A DNA stretch of 64,000 nucleotides from Promethearchaeota archaeon. GTDB taxonomy: Archaea; Asgardarchaeota; Lokiarchaeia; Sigyniarchaeales; SOKP01. Location of the stretch: NCBI GenBank assembly GCA_019058445.1, contig JAHPZA010000009.1:352001-416000 (forward strand), given 5' to 3'. The position numbers and the translations under genes are program-made. Positions 1,260 to 61,021 of the stretch are shown here, piece after piece; position 1 is the first letter of the stretch, and each line of letters begins with the position of its first letter. Under the pieces are notes generated by a model. The model did not search any database, was not told the DNA's origin, and saw only the letters and a list, made by a program, of their open reading frames with translations.

Positions 1260-1496
1260 AATAATTTCCTCCTTTTTTGAGTTTGATATGACAACAGTTA
1301 TTTAAATGATTCAAAACATTGTATTTTTGACAAAACTACTTTTTATTTAAGTTGGGATAGATAGTATTAAAAAGACTTTGTTAATGAATTATAAATCTGC
1401 AATTATAGAAACTAATAAATTATAGAATATTAGAATAAGTTTTATTAAGAAATACAGAAATTTTATATTTAATTTCGAAGCAAGGTGGCGTAAAAA

Positions 1497-2621
1497 ATTC
1501 GCTTACTCGAATATGAAAGTAAGGAAGTATTTTCTCAATTTGGTCTTCCGCTTGCGAAAAATAATGTGATCAATAATAAGGAAGATATTGAAGAAAAAGT
1601 AGATATATTTCAATTTCCAGCAATAATTAAATCACAAATTGCGATCGGAAGTAGAAAAAAAGCTGGGTTAATTAAAATTGCGCAGAATAACACCGAAGCA
1701 AAAGCTCTATGTGAAGAATTCTTTAGGAAAGAGGTTGGAGGCTTTCGAGTAGAAGCTATTCTTATTGAGGAATTGGTTACAATTCAACATGAATACTACT
1801 GCTCAATCGCCTTAGATGCTTCCAGTAGGCAGTTCTTTTTAATTGCGAGTAAAGAAGGAGGAATTGATATTGAAGAAGTGGCGACAACCCATCCCGAGGC
1901 TATAATTAAAGAAAATTTTTCATTGAAACAAGGTTTAACCAAAGAAATTGCTAAAAAGGTCGCAGAACAATTAGATATCACAAATAAACTTTTAAATTCT
2001 GCTATAGATATTTTTTTAAAGTTATGGGAAATTACATTTAAGACAGAAGCGCAATTAGTTGAAATTAATCCTTTAGTTTTGACCCCTTCAGGGTTATTAG
2101 CCGTAGATGGAAAGATGATTTTAGATGATGATGCAGCTTTTCGCCAACCATTAATTCAAGAATTAGAACCAAAAAAACTCTCTAATTTGGAGAAAGTAGC
2201 TAAAGAGGCAGGTTTTTCATTTGTAGAATTAGAGGGGGATATTGGAATCTTAGCAAATGGGGCTGGGTTAACTATGGCGCTTTTAGATGTATTATCTCAG
2301 CTCGGATTAAAACCCGCAAATTTTTTAGATGTTGGTGGGGGTGCCAGTAAAGAACGTGTGTATAAAGCCCTTGAGTTAATATTTAAACTGACTCCTAAAT
2401 GTGTTTTAATTAATATTTTTGGTGGAATAACCCGCTGTGATATTGTTGCAGAGGCTGTTATTCAAGCTCTAAAAGACTTCTCAAATGCTCCCCCTATAGT
2501 TATCAGATTAACGGGGACAAATGAAAAAGAGGGAATTGATTTACTTAAACGTGAGAATATTAATGCATTCAATGACGTAATGGAAGCAGTCAAAAAAGTG
2601 AAGGAGGTACTAGGTGGCTAA
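1497..2621 (+). CDS. sucC: Succinyl-CoA synthetase beta subunit (ADP-forming); probable ATT start
   Basis: EINPL, ANGAGL, PANFLDVGGG, NIFGGITRCD and RLTGTN motifs. The frame extends upstream of the track's 1566 start to (I)RLLEYESKE, the typical SucC N-terminus. Confidence 0.92.
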   Translation: MRLLEYESKEVFSQFGLPLAKNNVINNKEDIEEKVDIFQFPAIIKSQIAIGSRKKAGLIKIAQNNTEAKALCEEFFRKEVGGFRVEAILIEELVTIQHEYYCSIALDASSRQFFLIASKEGGIDIEEVATTHPEAIIKENFSLKQGLTKEIAKKVAEQLDITNKLLNSAIDIFLKLWEITFKTEAQLVEINPLVLTPSGLLAVDGKMILDDDAAFRQPLIQELEPKKLSNLEKVAKEAGFSFVELEGDIGILANGAGLTMALLDVLSQLGLKPANFLDVGGGASKERVYKALELIFKLTPKCVLINIFGGITRCDIVAEAVIQALKDFSNAPPIVIRLTGTNEKEGIDLLKRENINAFNDVMEAVKKVKEVLGG

Positions 2622-2622
2622 A

Positions 2623-3474
2623 ATGTATGTTAGTCAAAATTCAAAAGTGGTTGTTCAAGGAATAACTGGAAATCAAGGGGCCTTTCATACCAAATTAATG
2701 TTAGAGTATGGAACTAATATTGTTGCGGGAGTTACACCAAAAAAGGGAGGGCAAGAGGTACATGGTGTACCTGTTTTTAATTCCGTTAAAGAAGCAGTCT
2801 CAGAAAAAGACTGTGATACAAGTATTATCTTTGTTCCAGCAAAATTTATGTTTGAAGCTGTAAAGGAAAGTATATTAGCAGGTATCGCGATGACTTGTAT
2901 TATTACAGAAAATGTCCCAGTCTTTGATATGTTAAGACTAGTTGAGATGGCTCAAGAAAGAAAACAGCATCTTCTTGGTCCAAATTGTCCAGGAATGATG
3001 ATACCAGACAAAATAAAGCTAGGAATAATGCCAGGAGATATGTGTCATTACGGCAATGTAGCGGTGATTTCAAAAAGTGGTACTCTTTCTTATGAAATTA
3101 CTAAAACAATTGGTAACGCAGGAATTGGAGTTTCGGCTTATATTGGCATTGGAGGAGATCCCATTAGAGGGAAGACAATGATTGAAGCTGTTGAATATTA
3201 TTCTAACGATCCTAACACTAAAAAAATTGTACTTATTGGAGAAATAGGAAGTGATGAGGAAGAAAAGACTGCTGAATTTATAAAAGAGCATGTTTCTAAG
3301 CCCATCATTGCATATATTGCGGGAAAAAGTGCCCCTGAGGGAAAAAGAATGGGTCATGCGGGAGCTATAATTTCTGGAGATTTTGGTACAGCCCAAGGAA
3401 AGATTAAAGCATTAAAAAATGCTGGAGCTTTAATAGCAGATTTACCATGGGAAATCCCTAATCTTTTAAAATAA
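2623..3474 (+). CDS. sucD: Succinyl-CoA synthetase alpha subunit
   Basis: VQGITG, GPNCPG, SKSGTLSYE and MGHAGA (phospho-His) motifs; ATG at 2623 preferred over GTG at 2614. Confidence 0.95.
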   Translation: MYVSQNSKVVVQGITGNQGAFHTKLMLEYGTNIVAGVTPKKGGQEVHGVPVFNSVKEAVSEKDCDTSIIFVPAKFMFEAVKESILAGIAMTCIITENVPVFDMLRLVEMAQERKQHLLGPNCPGMMIPDKIKLGIMPGDMCHYGNVAVISKSGTLSYEITKTIGNAGIGVSAYIGIGGDPIRGKTMIEAVEYYSNDPNTKKIVLIGEIGSDEEEKTAEFIKEHVSKPIIAYIAGKSAPEGKRMGHAGAIISGDFGTAQGKIKALKNAGALIADLPWEIPNLLK

Positions 3475-51600: not shown

Positions 51601-51825
51601 ATAACCTAATATTTTGCAGTTTTTAAGATAAAACAGGTAATTAGTTTTTTATAATTTCAAATTATTTAAAGAAAAAGTATGGAAACAATTGATCTAAATT
51701 ACATAGAGTTAACTTTATATTATCAAACAAACTAAGATTTAAATTCTTCATAAATTAGCTTAGAGTCATTTATTATAAATGATAAAAGCCTTTTAGCGTT
51801 TAATAGACGATGTATGTGATATATT

Positions 51826-52659
51826 ATTAGTGAATTATACCCTCAATTAAACACAAAATCAGAATCCTTATATCATAAGGCAATCAAACAACTCATTTAC
51901 AAATACATTCTAAATTCAAATAAAAGTATTATTGAAAGCTCAACTGAGAAATATTTTAAAACCCGAAGAGCAGATCTTTTTTTTGAACTCCGCGATGGTA
52001 AAAAAGTTGTTATAGAGGTACAGCATTCAAAAATTACAACCAAAGAAATAATTGAAAGGACTCAAGAATATAATCAAAAAGGAATGTTTGTCTTGTGGAT
52101 CTTACATGGGAAAGGAAATTGCATCTCATGTCCCAAATTTCCTGAAAATATAAAATATGTTAAAATAAGTCCCGCTGAGAATACCCTTCATAAGATATAT
52201 GGAGGGAGAGTGTATTATGTGAATGTGAATGAATATTTCCATAAAATAACGATAACTTTTCCTTTCGCTATACATTACTCCCTTTCGGATAAAAAGCCAA
52301 GAAAATTGTTACGAAAGAATTTTAAATATTATTATTATAGAAATGCAAATTTCACAATGATTAATAACTGGAAATTACTCTGTGTTGAATATAATGGATT
52401 TAAAATAGCTAGGTTTTATGATAAAAATATTAAAACCTCCCTGAAAAATCAAATCTTTAATTTTATTCAAGAGTTCACAAAAAATTATCCCCAAAATTAT
52501 GAGAAGAGATCTAAAACTAAGAAATTAGTAAAAAATATCATCAAAAAATTCAATGTAGAATATGGAAAAACCATTATTATTGATTCGCTTTACCTTTTGA
52601 TCGATCAAATTCAAATTAATCAGAAATATATCAATCAAATCAGAAATAAGTATCGATAA
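51826..52659 (+). CDS. CoiA-like PD-(D/E)XK nuclease; probable ATT start
   Basis: The frame is open from 51820. The nuclease core ESLYHKAIK...RRADLF...VIEVQHS...ERTQEY...VLWI lies mostly upstream of the track ATG at 52084. Confidence 0.7.
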   Translation: MSELYPQLNTKSESLYHKAIKQLIYKYILNSNKSIIESSTEKYFKTRRADLFFELRDGKKVVIEVQHSKITTKEIIERTQEYNQKGMFVLWILHGKGNCISCPKFPENIKYVKISPAENTLHKIYGGRVYYVNVNEYFHKITITFPFAIHYSLSDKKPRKLLRKNFKYYYYRNANFTMINNWKLLCVEYNGFKIARFYDKNIKTSLKNQIFNFIQEFTKNYPQNYEKRSKTKKLVKNIIKKFNVEYGKTIIIDSLYLLIDQIQINQKYINQIRNKYR

Positions 52660-52798: not shown

Positions 52799-53542
52799 AT
52801 TAGTATTGATTGGACAAAAGCAGAGGAGGCCCCACAAAAAGCTCAAAAGGTTGAAGGAAAAGTCTTACTAGATTTGAGATCAAAGATTTCAAATTTAGAA
52901 AAAGAAGTAAATGAGAGTAAATCAAAATTAGACAAGACAAAAAGCGAATTAGATACGACTAAAGAAAATTTAACGAATACAGAAAAAAGCCTAAAAGAGA
53001 CAAATGAAAAACTATCTTCAACAGAAAAAGAAAGAAGTGATTTAAATGAAGAACTAAATAAACTCAAATCAGAGAAATCGGATGTGGATGGTAAATTAAG
53101 TGACACAGAGAAAAAGGTTTCAGAATTGGAGAGTAAAGTTGGTGAATTAGAACAAAAAATTGCTGAAAAAGACAAAGAAATTGAAAGTATTAAATCTGAA
53201 CTTTCCACTAAAGATAGTGAAATTGGAAAGATTAAAAGTGATTTAGAAAAAGAAATGGAGACTATCAAGTCTGACCTTTCCAGTAAAGACAGTGAAATTG
53301 GAAAGGTTAAAGGCGATTTAGAGCAAAAAGTCTCAGATAAAGATACGGAGATTGCTAGTCTTAAAAATGATCTTGAGGTAAAAGTAAATCAAATAAATGA
53401 ACTGAACGATAAAATTAGCTCATTTGAAGCACAGACTTCTGATGCTGAGGGTGCTCCAAATATTATTGAGCAAATTAAGGAAATAATGAAAACTAAAGGG
53501 TTTCTCTCTGACAGAGAATTTGAAGGGATGTTATCCCAATGA
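52799..53542 (+). CDS. Coiled-coil protein; probable ATT start
   Basis: SD AAGGTGA, then ATT-AGT-ATT-GAT-TGG; long heptad region with KDSEIGK repeats. Confidence 0.7.
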   Translation: MSIDWTKAEEAPQKAQKVEGKVLLDLRSKISNLEKEVNESKSKLDKTKSELDTTKENLTNTEKSLKETNEKLSSTEKERSDLNEELNKLKSEKSDVDGKLSDTEKKVSELESKVGELEQKIAEKDKEIESIKSELSTKDSEIGKIKSDLEKEMETIKSDLSSKDSEIGKVKGDLEQKVSDKDTEIASLKNDLEVKVNQINELNDKISSFEAQTSDAEGAPNIIEQIKEIMKTKGFLSDREFEGMLSQ

Positions 53543-54973: not shown

Positions 54974-55024
54974 TTATCAATTAGAGGATCATAAGATTTA
55001 TTTAGGTGATAAAAAATAAGTATT

Positions 55025-57175
55025 GTGGAATGTTCAAGTCCTTACTGTGAAATTGATGAGGAAGAAGAAGAGGAATCCTTTTTTGAAGAACATTTCTGGT
55101 ATTTTATAATTCCATCTGCAATAATCTTAGGAATCGCTATTTTTTTAGAATTTTTTTATGAAATGGTTTTATTAGGGCAAATTTTTGCGATTTCATCGAT
55201 TTTTCTTTCTAGTTATGGTGTTGTGACAGAAGCTATTGAAGACATTAAACATAAAAGGATAACAGCAAATATTTTAATGATAATAGCCGCTGTAGCTTCG
55301 TTTTTCATATTTCACGGACAAGAGGGAGCAACTGCGATATTACTTTATGCCATAGCTGAAAGATTGGAAGAAATAACAAATGATAAGTCAAGGAACGCGA
55401 TTAAGGAACTACTTGAATTAGCCCCCGATGATGCCTTATTAAAAATTGATAATGGTTATAAAAATGTTCCAGCAAAGGAGGTTCAAATAGGAAAAATAAT
55501 AGGAATAAAGCCGGGAATGAAAGTACCATTAGATGGGGTAATTATGAAAGGGAGCTCTTATTTTGATGAAAGCGCTATAACTGGTGAGAGTGTTCCGGTC
55601 TTTAAGAACGAGGGCGATGAGATTTTTGCGGCCAGCTTAAATTCTGACAGTTTTGTGGATATAGAAGTCACAAGAGAGAGTTCAAATACCATTGTAGCTC
55701 AAATTGCAGAAAGTGTCAAACAAGCGCAATTAAACAAAAGCAAACATGAAAGATTTATAGAAAAATTCGCACGATACTATACCCCAATCATCATATTGGC
55801 AGCATTGATGGTAATGATTATCCCACCTCTAGTCTGGGGTTTGGACTTTAATGATTGGTTTTATAGGGGATTGATATTGTTGGTAGTTTCATGCCCCTGT
55901 GCTTTAACATTATCTACTCCACTTGCAAATATCGCATCCTTAACAAAACAAGCTAGAGAAGGAATTTTAGTTAAAGGAAATAGATTTATTGAAGAAGTGA
56001 ATGATATAGAGGTATTTGCATTCGATAAAACGGGTACACTAACAGAAGGAAAATTAAAAATTTTTGAAATTTTTGCTTATAATGGGATTGACAGAGAGGA
56101 AGTAATTAGTATCGCTGCCAGTTTAGAAGCACTTTCAGAACATCCAATTGGTAAAGCAATTGTTAATGAAGCTAAAAACAAGGAATTAGCATTTCAATCT
56201 GTAGATAGTTTTGAAGTGATAAAGGGAAAGGGGATAAGAGGACAAATTAACGGGGAATCTTTTTATGTTGGAAGCAAAAGCTATATCGAAGAATTAAATT
56301 ACCAGCTACCTTTAAAAGATTTAGAGGATATAGAGAGTTCTGGAACTATCCCTATTTTGTTAGGTAATAACCAGAAATTATTAGGAATCATCTCAATTAG
56401 AGATGTTTTAAGAGTCACAGCTCCAATTCTAATAAATGGACTCAGAGAAAGAGGTTACGAGACGGTTTTAATATCTGGTGATAATCAGGCAGTATGTGAT
56501 TCGATTGGAGCATGCTTAGACATAGATCACGCTTACGGAGAGCAATTACCTGACCAAAAACTCGAAGAAATAAAAGATTTAAAGAAAAAATATAAGGGAG
56601 TAGCCATGGTTGGAGATGGAATAAACGATGCTCCAGCTCTTGCTTTAGCAGATTTAGGTATTGCGATTGGAGCCTCAGCAACAGATATTACATTAGAAAC
56701 TGCAGATGTTATTATTATTAATGATGATTTGAAAAAAATCTTAACTTATATTGACATTTCCAAAAAAACAAACCAAAAAATAAAACAGAATATTTGGACC
56801 TCAATAATTGTTAAAGTGTCTTTTGCAGTTTTAACAGTTATCGGTTTAATGACATTATGGCTTGCTGTAGGTATTGGAGATATGGGCGTATCTTTGCTCG
56901 TTTTGCTTAATGGGATGACAATTTTTAGATACAAATTTAAATATAAAGAAATTTCGTCTGAAGAACTGGAAACTGAGGCAAAAATACTAGTATGCGAACA
57001 TTGTAAAACTGAAAAAATTATTCCGCAGCATCATGGAAGAGATATGCTTCTTTCTAAAGATAACGACAAGTTAATTTGCTGGAGAAAGATGTTAGATAGC
57101 GAAGGTCTTGAGCCTTGTGAAGAAGAACTGCCACTTTTCTGCCCTAAATGTGAAAATTTATTAGAAGTTAAATAA
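55025..57175 (+). CDS. P1B-type heavy-metal translocating ATPase (Zn/Cd/Pb-like)
   Basis: TGES, SCPC, DKTGT, SEHP and GDGINDAP motifs; Cys/His-rich C-terminal tail. Confidence 0.95.
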   Translation: MECSSPYCEIDEEEEEESFFEEHFWYFIIPSAIILGIAIFLEFFYEMVLLGQIFAISSIFLSSYGVVTEAIEDIKHKRITANILMIIAAVASFFIFHGQEGATAILLYAIAERLEEITNDKSRNAIKELLELAPDDALLKIDNGYKNVPAKEVQIGKIIGIKPGMKVPLDGVIMKGSSYFDESAITGESVPVFKNEGDEIFAASLNSDSFVDIEVTRESSNTIVAQIAESVKQAQLNKSKHERFIEKFARYYTPIIILAALMVMIIPPLVWGLDFNDWFYRGLILLVVSCPCALTLSTPLANIASLTKQAREGILVKGNRFIEEVNDIEVFAFDKTGTLTEGKLKIFEIFAYNGIDREEVISIAASLEALSEHPIGKAIVNEAKNKELAFQSVDSFEVIKGKGIRGQINGESFYVGSKSYIEELNYQLPLKDLEDIESSGTIPILLGNNQKLLGIISIRDVLRVTAPILINGLRERGYETVLISGDNQAVCDSIGACLDIDHAYGEQLPDQKLEEIKDLKKKYKGVAMVGDGINDAPALALADLGIAIGASATDITLETADVIIINDDLKKILTYIDISKKTNQKIKQNIWTSIIVKVSFAVLTVIGLMTLWLAVGIGDMGVSLLVLLNGMTIFRYKFKYKEISSEELETEAKILVCEHCKTEKIIPQHHGRDMLLSKDNDKLICWRKMLDSEGLEPCEEELPLFCPKCENLLEVK
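56996..57175 (+). repeat. 180-bp direct repeat, copy 1
   Basis: Identical to 57935-58114 on base-by-base comparison. Confidence 0.95.
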
Positions 57176-58313: not shown

Positions 58314-58398
58314 GCGGGAATTGCCAAGTTTGGTCAAAGGCGCTGGACTCAGAATCCAGTCACGAAGGTGTTCGGGAGTTCAAATCTCCCTTCCCGCA
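58314..58398 (+). tRNA. tRNA-Leu(CAG)
   Basis: Acceptor stem GCGGGAA/TTCCCGC+A, anticodon arm CTGGA-CTCAGAA-TCCAG, long variable arm, T arm GGGAG-TTCAAAT-CTCCC; CCA not encoded. Confidence 0.95.
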
Positions 58399-58518
58399 CT
58401 TGTTTTATTTCAATTCTGGAAAGTTTACTTCGATATTTTCTAGTTCAATGGAAATACAAACTATAATAAATGAAGATGAAAATCTAATTATTAGCTCTTC
58501 AAAAAAAAGGTATTTATT

Positions 58519-60793: not shown

Positions 60794-61021
60794 TTAAATA
60801 CTTTCTTTTGAATATTTTTCAATTATATAATTCTGAAGTGAAAACGCATATTTTTCAAGGTTTAGAATTAAAATTTTTTGTTGAACTTCCCTAAGATACG
60901 ATACATCTAAGGATTCAAATAAATTTTTTAAATTGTCGATTGAATTAAAAACCTCTACTATTATCTTCCAATCTTTTGCCCATTCTACATCATGATGCTC
61001 TTTACGTCCTATTTCCTCTAT
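60794..61021 (-). CDS. Hypothetical protein (75 aa) with probable ATA start (not in track)
   Basis: SD GAGGT, then ATA-GAG-GAA...: (M)EEIGRKEHHDVEWAKDWKIIVEVFNSIDNLKNLFESLDVSYLREVQQKILILNLEKYAFSLQNYIIEKYSKESI; no ATG/GTG/TTG in frame. Confidence 0.6.
   Translation of the reverse strand: MEEIGRKEHHDVEWAKDWKIIVEVFNSIDNLKNLFESLDVSYLREVQQKILILNLEKYAFSLQNYIIEKYSKESI

Follow-up and report, generated by a model that had tools for sequence, protein, structure and literature searches.

The closest described precedents for translation initiation at isoleucine codons are bacterial, where infC, the gene for initiation factor IF3, and Escherichia coli pcnB each start at an AUU codon placed behind a normal Shine-Dalgarno (SD) sequence and read by the ordinary initiator tRNA. 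The infC codon is normally rejected by IF3, and infC is translated more strongly when IF3 runs short (PMC4705826). AUA, AUU and AUC also start translation in mitochondria, where two reports attribute their use to a tRNA-Met carrying 5-formylcytidine at position 34 (f5C34; PMC5048346, PMC2655697), and eukaryotic eIF1 autoregulates through an AUG in poor context (PMC4705826). For archaea the start codons are given as AUG, GUG and UUG (PMC4705826), ribosome profiling in Haloferax set near-cognate sites aside (PMC7261190), and our literature searches found no description of AUU, AUA or AUC starts in Asgard archaea. Here we analyse 64,000 nucleotides of contig JAHPZA010000009.1 from a Promethearchaeota archaeon of Lokiarchaeia type (the window, G000:C9:352001-416000; assembly of 4.61 Mb in 10 contigs, approximately 31% G+C), in which sucC, the gene for the beta subunit of ADP-forming succinate-CoA ligase, carries an ATT codon where its initiator methionine is expected. 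We consider it highly likely that this gene is intact and AUU-initiated behind an SD sequence, and that similar starts serve four other genes of the window and approximately 2-5% of genes overall.

The sucC gene occupies 1497-2621 (374 codons and a stop) on the forward strand, on which all features of this locus lie, and its frame, read from 1494 as K-I-R-L-L-E-Y-E-S-K-E-V-F, stays open for 375 codons. An earlier note on this DNA had pointed to a set of start-site elements, each of which lies where it was placed: an SD-like AAGGTGG at 1482-1488, 8 nt ahead of the putative initiation codon ATT (1497-1499); an in-frame TAA at 1491-1493, which together with an AAA at 1494-1496 separates the SD from the ATT and closes the frame two codons before it; and, as the first canonical start (ATG, GTG or TTG) met in frame, a GTG at 1566-1568, codon 24. 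Inspection of the sequence upstream of this GTG found no SD. The ATT is followed by CGC TTA CTC GAA TAT GAA AGT AAG, giving (I)RLLEYESK. In the product, residues 3-194 align to profile positions 2-201 of Pfam ATP-grasp_2 (PF08442, 1.4e-51), Ligase_CoA (PF00549, 3.3e-20) lies C-terminal to it, and homologues are named succinate-CoA ligase subunit beta. With both domains in order and sucD adjoining, SucC is the beta subunit of ADP-forming succinate-CoA ligase. As ATP-grasp_2 aligns from residue 3, the ATT holds the Met position, and a start at GTG 1566 would cost 23 residues of this domain.

The operon supplies its own internal control. sucD (2623-3474; N-terminus MYVSQNSKVVVQGITG) starts one base past the sucC stop at an ATG behind AGGTGG-CTAAA, with the AGGTGG at 2611-2616, and the ribosome-binding sites of the two genes are near-identical, reading GGTGG-CTAAA-ATG for sucD and GGTGG-CGTAAAAA-ATT for sucC. 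A mini open reading frame (ORF) of three codons, GTG-GCG-TAA (1485-1493), stands in frame directly before the sucC ATT as part of the SD; orthologues do not conserve it.

Conservation of the codon was read from 76 usable sucC loci, comprising 44 Asgard and 32 non-Asgard loci, one of the latter being unusable at the start-equivalent codon. Among the Asgard loci, which cover metagenome-assembled genomes (MAGs) labelled Thor-, Hod-, Heimdall- and Hermodarchaeota, the start-equivalent codon is ATT in 23, ATA in 14, ATC, CTG and GTA in one each and ATG in four, such that an isoleucine codon occupies the Met-equivalent position in 38 of 44. Only canonical codons are found at this position in the non-Asgard loci from Anaerolineae, Thermoplasmata, Methanomassiliicoccales and others (ATG 27, GTG 2, TTG 2), and both tallies bear out the earlier proposal that ATT 1497 sits where Met is expected. 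The Asgard orthologues carry SD equivalents (GGAGG, GGTGG or GAGGG) 5-9 nt before the start-equivalent codon, and the downstream peptide RLLEYESK is near-invariant. The sucC ATT therefore has the attributes of a near-cognate start, with no canonical start before the N-terminus, an SD at canonical spacing and orthologues that are canonical at the same position.

The closest relatives tell the same story. The nearest sucC loci among public genomes belong to MAGs labelled Promethearchaeota or Promethearchaeia. Among relatives with whole genomes, ATT is present in this genome, in four congeneric ones and in two other genera of its family, with TTG in two others, GTG in one and ATG in one; each of these orthologues has a GGAGG/GGTGG-type motif 5-9 nt upstream of the start-equivalent codon, which in most of them is also preceded, at 1-5 codons, by an in-frame stop. 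Part of the outcome that would have counted against the earlier note, namely that close relatives all have ATG, was thus not observed, as ATT is retained in most. The ORF is unbroken and shares 60-87% identity with its orthologues, and since ATT or ATA is found in independent assemblies, a shared consensus error or a pseudogene can be ruled out. ATT and ATA have replaced each other repeatedly at this position while ATG, a single mutation away, has not become fixed, and this speaks for selection of a non-AUG start in sucC. The deep conservation of this non-canonical start across Asgard phyla is the new element in our analysis.

Two further observations concern the sucC loci. A pattern scan placed the nearest sucC relatives beyond Asgard archaea in Anaerolineae (Chloroflexota), at approximately 40% identity, and sucC of other archaea (Thermoplasmata, Methanomassiliicoccales) at approximately 35%. 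With regard to CTG as a candidate start, the single CTG and the single GTA of the Asgard tally come from one locus each (L053 and L039).

The same arrangement recurs at four other sites in the window, three on the forward strand and one on the minus strand, as the earlier note had reported, and at each of them the sequence is as described and is supported by relatives, with the support slightly weaker at 55016. A gene for a CoiA-nuclease-like protein (51826-52659, forward strand) would start at an ATT with GTGAT 5 nt upstream and a TGA at 51817; its first canonical start comes at codon 88, and the CoiA_nuc domain (Pfam) spans residues 13-96 of the product. Within a shared TGA-TAT-NNN context, this codon is ATT in the sister species and ATG in three genomes of the same genus. 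A gene for a coiled-coil protein (52799-53542, forward strand) has an ATT behind AAGGTGA, with GGTGA 6 nt upstream, the TGA of this motif forming an in-frame stop three codons upstream, and a first canonical start at codon 27. All members of this family begin (M)-x-I-D-W behind AGGTGA, whose TGA is again the in-frame stop, and their start-equivalent codons are ATT in eight, ATA in one, ATG in three, TTG in one and GTG in one. The family is strongly expanded, with seven matches in this genome, several of them in tandem at G000:C3:45450-48256, and 2-12 per relative; Pfam returned only generic coiled-coil matches for it.

At 55016-57175 (forward strand), a P-type ATPase gene (Pfam E1-E2_ATPase) has GGTGA-TAAAAA ahead of an ATA, at a spacer of 6, and the ATA is its probable start; the alternative, an in-frame GTG, sits 15 nt from the SD. 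The codon equivalent to this ATA is ATT in the sister species, which has no GTG nearby, ATA in G008, and ATG in G001 and G005. The fourth site belongs to a conserved small ORF of 75 aa on the minus strand (60794-61021), with GAGGT at a spacer of 7 before an ATA and a TAA two codons upstream. This ORF is present in 23 of 31 relatives. Read by eye, GAGGT-N7-ATA-GAR occurs in approximately 8 of 14 relative loci, with ATG in L228; the automatic tally (ATA 4, GTG 3, others) is an undercount because tblastn alignments begin at varying offsets.

Beyond the window, the signal is genome-wide. Where the canonical start is confident, 5-mers of the anti-SD complement AGGAGGTGATC are most frequent at a spacer of 5-10 nt, and approximately 14% (13.6%) of canonical starts carry such a 5-mer. 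A spacing test was restricted to ORFs of 150 codons or more and, within them, to the 5' stretch that precedes the first canonical start and has no canonical triplet nearby. ATA was preceded by 56 SD 5-mers at a spacer of 4-10 nt compared with 18.5 in the control window (Poisson 2e-12), with a sharp peak at 5-7, and ATT by 37 compared with 11 (Poisson 6e-10); both codons share the spacer peak of the canonical starts. Codons other than the canonical starts, ATT/ATA/ATC and CTG gave 260 compared with 266, and AAT in particular 2 compared with approximately 10. For CTG, 41 codons passed the filter, with six SD 5-mers at spacer 7-9 and none at spacer 0-6, and CTG may also act as a start.

A looser count considered 3,841 non-overlapping ORFs of at least 100 codons. 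A strong SD with a canonical start was found in 576 ORFs, and a further 121 have a strong SD with ATT, ATA or ATC upstream of the first canonical start, compared with 32-43 ORFs for composition-matched control codon sets; the excess amounts to approximately 80-90 genes, or approximately 2% of ORFs and one eighth of strong-SD genes. An SD-independent test graded extensions of at least 20 codons as coding-like or not by codon usage, a score that separates coding from non-coding sequence only moderately over 20 codons and was used for group comparisons only. Within 12 codons of the upstream stop, an SD-led ATT, ATA or ATC was found in 39% of coding-like extensions (n = 75) and in 5.6% of non-coding-like ones (n = 178). 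A strong SD is approximately three times as frequent at ATT/ATA/ATC starts as at canonical starts, and given that only 13.6% of canonical starts have one, the isoleucine-codon starts appear to lean on strong SDs.

As the strict filter kept one of the five window sites, the true number of such genes is probably above the lower bound, and the sequence counts would put ATT, ATA and ATC starts in roughly 2-5% of genes. A larger figure of 250-590 genes, derived from the excess of long 5' extensions over a geometric expectation, was rejected since overlapping upstream genes also lengthen stop-free runs. The earlier suggestion that this lineage routinely initiates at AUU or AUA is therefore upheld in that the habit is common to the lineage, but "routinely" has to be read as a few percent of genes and not as most of them.

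We also translated 40 candidates with an SD and an ATT, ATA or ATC from that codon and scanned the products against Pfam. In nine products the first domain already opens ahead of any canonical start. These are a geranylgeranyl-reductase-like flavoprotein, with its Rossmann motif at residues 4-35 and the next canonical start only at 99; a paralogue of the transcription factor TFB, with a Zn ribbon at 13-46 and the next canonical start at 42; an Arf-like GTPase with an ATC start, whose P-loop lies at 13 and whose next canonical start is at 29; a GT2 glycosyltransferase and two GFO/IDH/MocA oxidoreductases; and proteins with LRR, HeH/Ish1 and TPR domains. Approximately 12 of the 40 have no Pfam match and in approximately 17 the first domain follows the first canonical start; none of the 40 contradicts a non-canonical start. 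Relatives of the TFB paralogue have ATG at identical spacing behind GAGGT, and homologues of the flavoprotein all start at an ATG within 1-2 codons of its ATA.

NCBI translation table 11 includes ATT, ATC and ATA among its initiators, and annotation under this table shares them with the genes described here, but admits them case by case and not as the property of a lineage. Some sucC genes do start at ATT in NCBI records, as in P0003 (374 aa, MRLLEYESK), whose contig reads ATT (L037/L003). The public prediction of the sucC studied here, P0002, is a 351-aa form that begins MINNKEDIEE at GTG 1566. Across public Asgard SucC predictions (P0002-P0121), one conserved gene start has been given at least five different N-termini, namely the 351-aa truncation, truncations of 356-365 aa, 372-aa forms begun at a Leu codon inside the gene, versions lengthened to a canonical start further upstream, and the correct 374-aa form; the wrong N-termini come from Prodigal-type calls. 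The predictions read MRLLEYESK or MLEYESK at the N-terminus, retain an Ile ahead of RLLEY where they are extended, or lack 10-27 residues where they are truncated. Together with the nine candidates whose domains precede the first canonical start, these records agree with the earlier note that standard gene callers truncate such genes.

The earlier note had also proposed inspecting aIF1 and the initiator tRNA, and the single-copy aIF1 (SUI1) gene proved to have a conserved ATT/ATC start of its own. In its open frame of 109 codons (G000:C10:8794-9123; loci L103/L134), no canonical codon occurs before a GTG that belongs to the C-V-C of the N-terminal zinc knuckle. The protein aligns to Methanocaldococcus jannaschii aIF1 from residue 3 of the latter, and the start should therefore lie just upstream, where an ATT stands 9 nt past GGTTGTGA, a motif that supplies the in-frame stop through its TGA. 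In the family of this aIF1 (G000:C10:8803) the start-equivalent codon is ATT in 16 genomes and ATC in three, all with GGTTGTGA, and a near-cognate start conserved among relatives is one mark of infC-type fidelity-factor genes. Most members of the sister family f2 have a canonical codon (GTG, TTG or ATG) ahead of the zinc knuckle. Loop 1 of the protein is ordinary, reading R-K-W-G-K compared with R-R-F-G-K in M. jannaschii; in Pyrococcus abyssi aIF1, R31, Y32 and K34 of this loop have been shown to be important. As the substitution is conservative, the aIF1 sequence offers no explanation of laxity, and the relaxed start selection by aIF1 or aIF2 envisaged by the earlier note is an inference only.

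The initiator tRNA gene, found by sequence pattern at C7:14171-14341, is likewise unremarkable at its anticodon. It has a normal CAU anticodon in the loop CUCAUAA, three G:C pairs in the anticodon stem, A1:U72 and an encoded CCA, and a pattern search for initiator-type anticodon stems with other anticodons gave nothing tRNA-like. ARAGORN reports 23 tRNA genes and Rfam RF00005 19 in the 4.6-Mb genome, and both miss the initiator; most tRNAs here must therefore escape standard detection. The initiator gene is interrupted by two introns, of which the first follows the anticodon loop and the second, of approximately 65 nt, lies in the T-loop. Within the window, the sole tRNA detected by ARAGORN is a tRNA-Leu(CAG) at 58314-58399.

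We propose that the duplex between the SD and the anti-SD would set AUU 1497 into the P site, where the ordinary initiator tRNA (CAU) would pair with the first two codon bases and the mismatch at the third would be tolerated, in which case SucC most likely begins with Met. This SD-directed, near-cognate initiation at AUU, AUA or AUC would be common to sucC, the four other window genes and approximately 2-5% of genes, and for sucC and aIF1 the isoleucine-codon start appears in addition to be held by selection across many genera. Many other starts flip between ATT/ATA/ATC and ATG among close relatives, which looks like tolerance combined with drift, whereas the retention of ATT/ATA/ATC by sucC and aIF1 over long evolutionary distances looks like selection for a weak, stringency-sensitive start.

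Among the described systems, the resemblance is strongest to bacterial infC and pcnB, in which a near-cognate Ile codon likewise follows a normal SD and is read by an ordinary initiator tRNA. The likeness to infC extends to the gene of a fidelity factor having a near-cognate start itself, here the ATT/ATC of aIF1 conserved across the family, and by this analogy the conserved isoleucine codons of sucC and aIF1 suggest starts that may be deliberately weak and responsive to stringency. The systems differ in that the aIF1/SUI1 fold is unrelated to IF3, that tens to hundreds of genes would be concerned here compared with a handful, and that autoregulation of aIF1 is a hypothesis here. Mitochondria use the same set of start codons, but their mRNAs have no leader and AUA also stands for Met during elongation, whereas the Asgard starts appear SD-dependent and nothing suggests codon reassignment. 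With eukaryotic eIF1 the shared feature is a homologous factor (eIF1/aIF1) with a deliberately weak start on its own mRNA; eukaryotes weaken the context and scan, whereas Asgard archaea would weaken the codon and let the SD position it.

Several points weigh against this account. Initiation at these codons, together with the identity of the initiating tRNA, the first amino acid and any regulatory role, is inferred from genomic data. Sulfolobus aIF1 rejects AUU in vitro (PMC4705826), and Asgard archaea would therefore need a tolerant pre-initiation complex, starts of low efficiency, or a tRNA modification that widens pairing. The genome-wide count depends on the model used, with estimates from approximately 45 to more than 250, and the poor detection of tRNAs may leave room for a second initiator-like tRNA. 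At 55016, the letters by themselves are ambiguous, since the in-frame GTG three codons downstream could serve as the start in place of the ATA.

Of the other explanations, the one that fares best holds that the isoleucine-codon starts are gene-specific regulatory devices and not a sign of global laxity, and that they tune SucC or couple its synthesis to aIF1 abundance. The persistence of ATT/ATA/ATC in 38 of 44 Asgard sucC loci with ATG one mutation away, the ATT/ATC of aIF1 in 19 family members, the genome-wide rate of a few percent and the roughly threefold enrichment of strong SDs over canonical starts are all in keeping with such devices. The CoiA-like, TFB, geranylgeranyl-reductase-like and ATPase starts do not fit, as they swap with ATG among close relatives or paralogues. 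We regard gene-specific regulation as a possibility to be taken seriously, although we do not favour it; it overlaps with general near-cognate initiation and differs from it in emphasis, and the two are not exclusive. A more far-reaching idea, which we put forward tentatively and consider rather doubtful, is an Asgard "stringency regulon" of genes with conserved AUU/AUA/AUC starts whose output would be set by the level of aIF1, with aIF1 regulating itself through its own AUU/AUC. Its proposed members would be sucC (in at least five NCBI-labelled Asgard phyla), aIF1, the TFB paralogue and small GTPases.

We consider it unlikely that near-cognate initiation stems from widened decoding by the tRNA, either through modification of C34 in the initiator (as in f5C34) or through a second initiator-like tRNA. 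The favoured codons all have AU at positions 1 and 2 and vary only at position 3, the mitochondrial use of AUA and AUU via f5C34 offers a precedent, and tRNA gene detection in this genome is incomplete. However, the anticodon loop (CAU) of the sole initiator tRNA gene found is unremarkable, the pattern search gave no variant anticodon in an initiator-type stem, and CTG, with its difference at position 1, is a further possible start.

For sucC itself, a start at the internal GTG 1566, yielding an N-terminally shortened protein with the upstream 23 codons as an untranslated leader, agrees with the public gene call and with this codon being the first canonical start, but is very improbable. The GTG lacks an SD, ATP-grasp_2 begins at residue 3, and the 23 upstream codons are conserved as protein across Asgard phyla (IRLLEYESKE[IV]F) and match the MxLxEYxxK with which all SucC proteins begin; relatives have no start codon at the equivalent position, and their truncation points vary. 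Although the genome is a MAG and an in-frame GTG GCG TAA does exist, it is scarcely credible that the ATT is an artefact (a consensus G>T), the mark of a decaying pseudogene or a site of re-initiation after the mini-ORF, as ATT or ATA is present in 37 independent assemblies, the unbroken ORF keeps 60-87% identity to its orthologues, and the GTG is merely part of the GGTGG SD, in place of which most orthologues have GGAGG. A leaderless sucC start was considered and rejected together with mini-ORF re-initiation, as neither feature is conserved in orthologues.

SD-directed initiation at AUU, AUA and AUC has consequences for how Asgard genomes are read. Gene finders that accept only ATG, GTG and TTG would leave Asgard proteomes with lost N-termini or without whole genes, and the loss of N-termini affects comparative and structural studies that use Asgard proteins to address eukaryogenesis. 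A eukaryote-adjacent lineage that tolerates, and in part conserves, AUU, AUA and AUC starts would be a natural system in which to study start-codon stringency, for which the conserved sucC start provides a single and easily testable reporter. The non-canonical start of the aIF1 gene itself bears on the evolution of stringency and of its feedback control, and eukaryotic eIF1 autoregulation and regulated non-AUG initiation would have an archaeal forerunner in the stringency regulon, if it exists.

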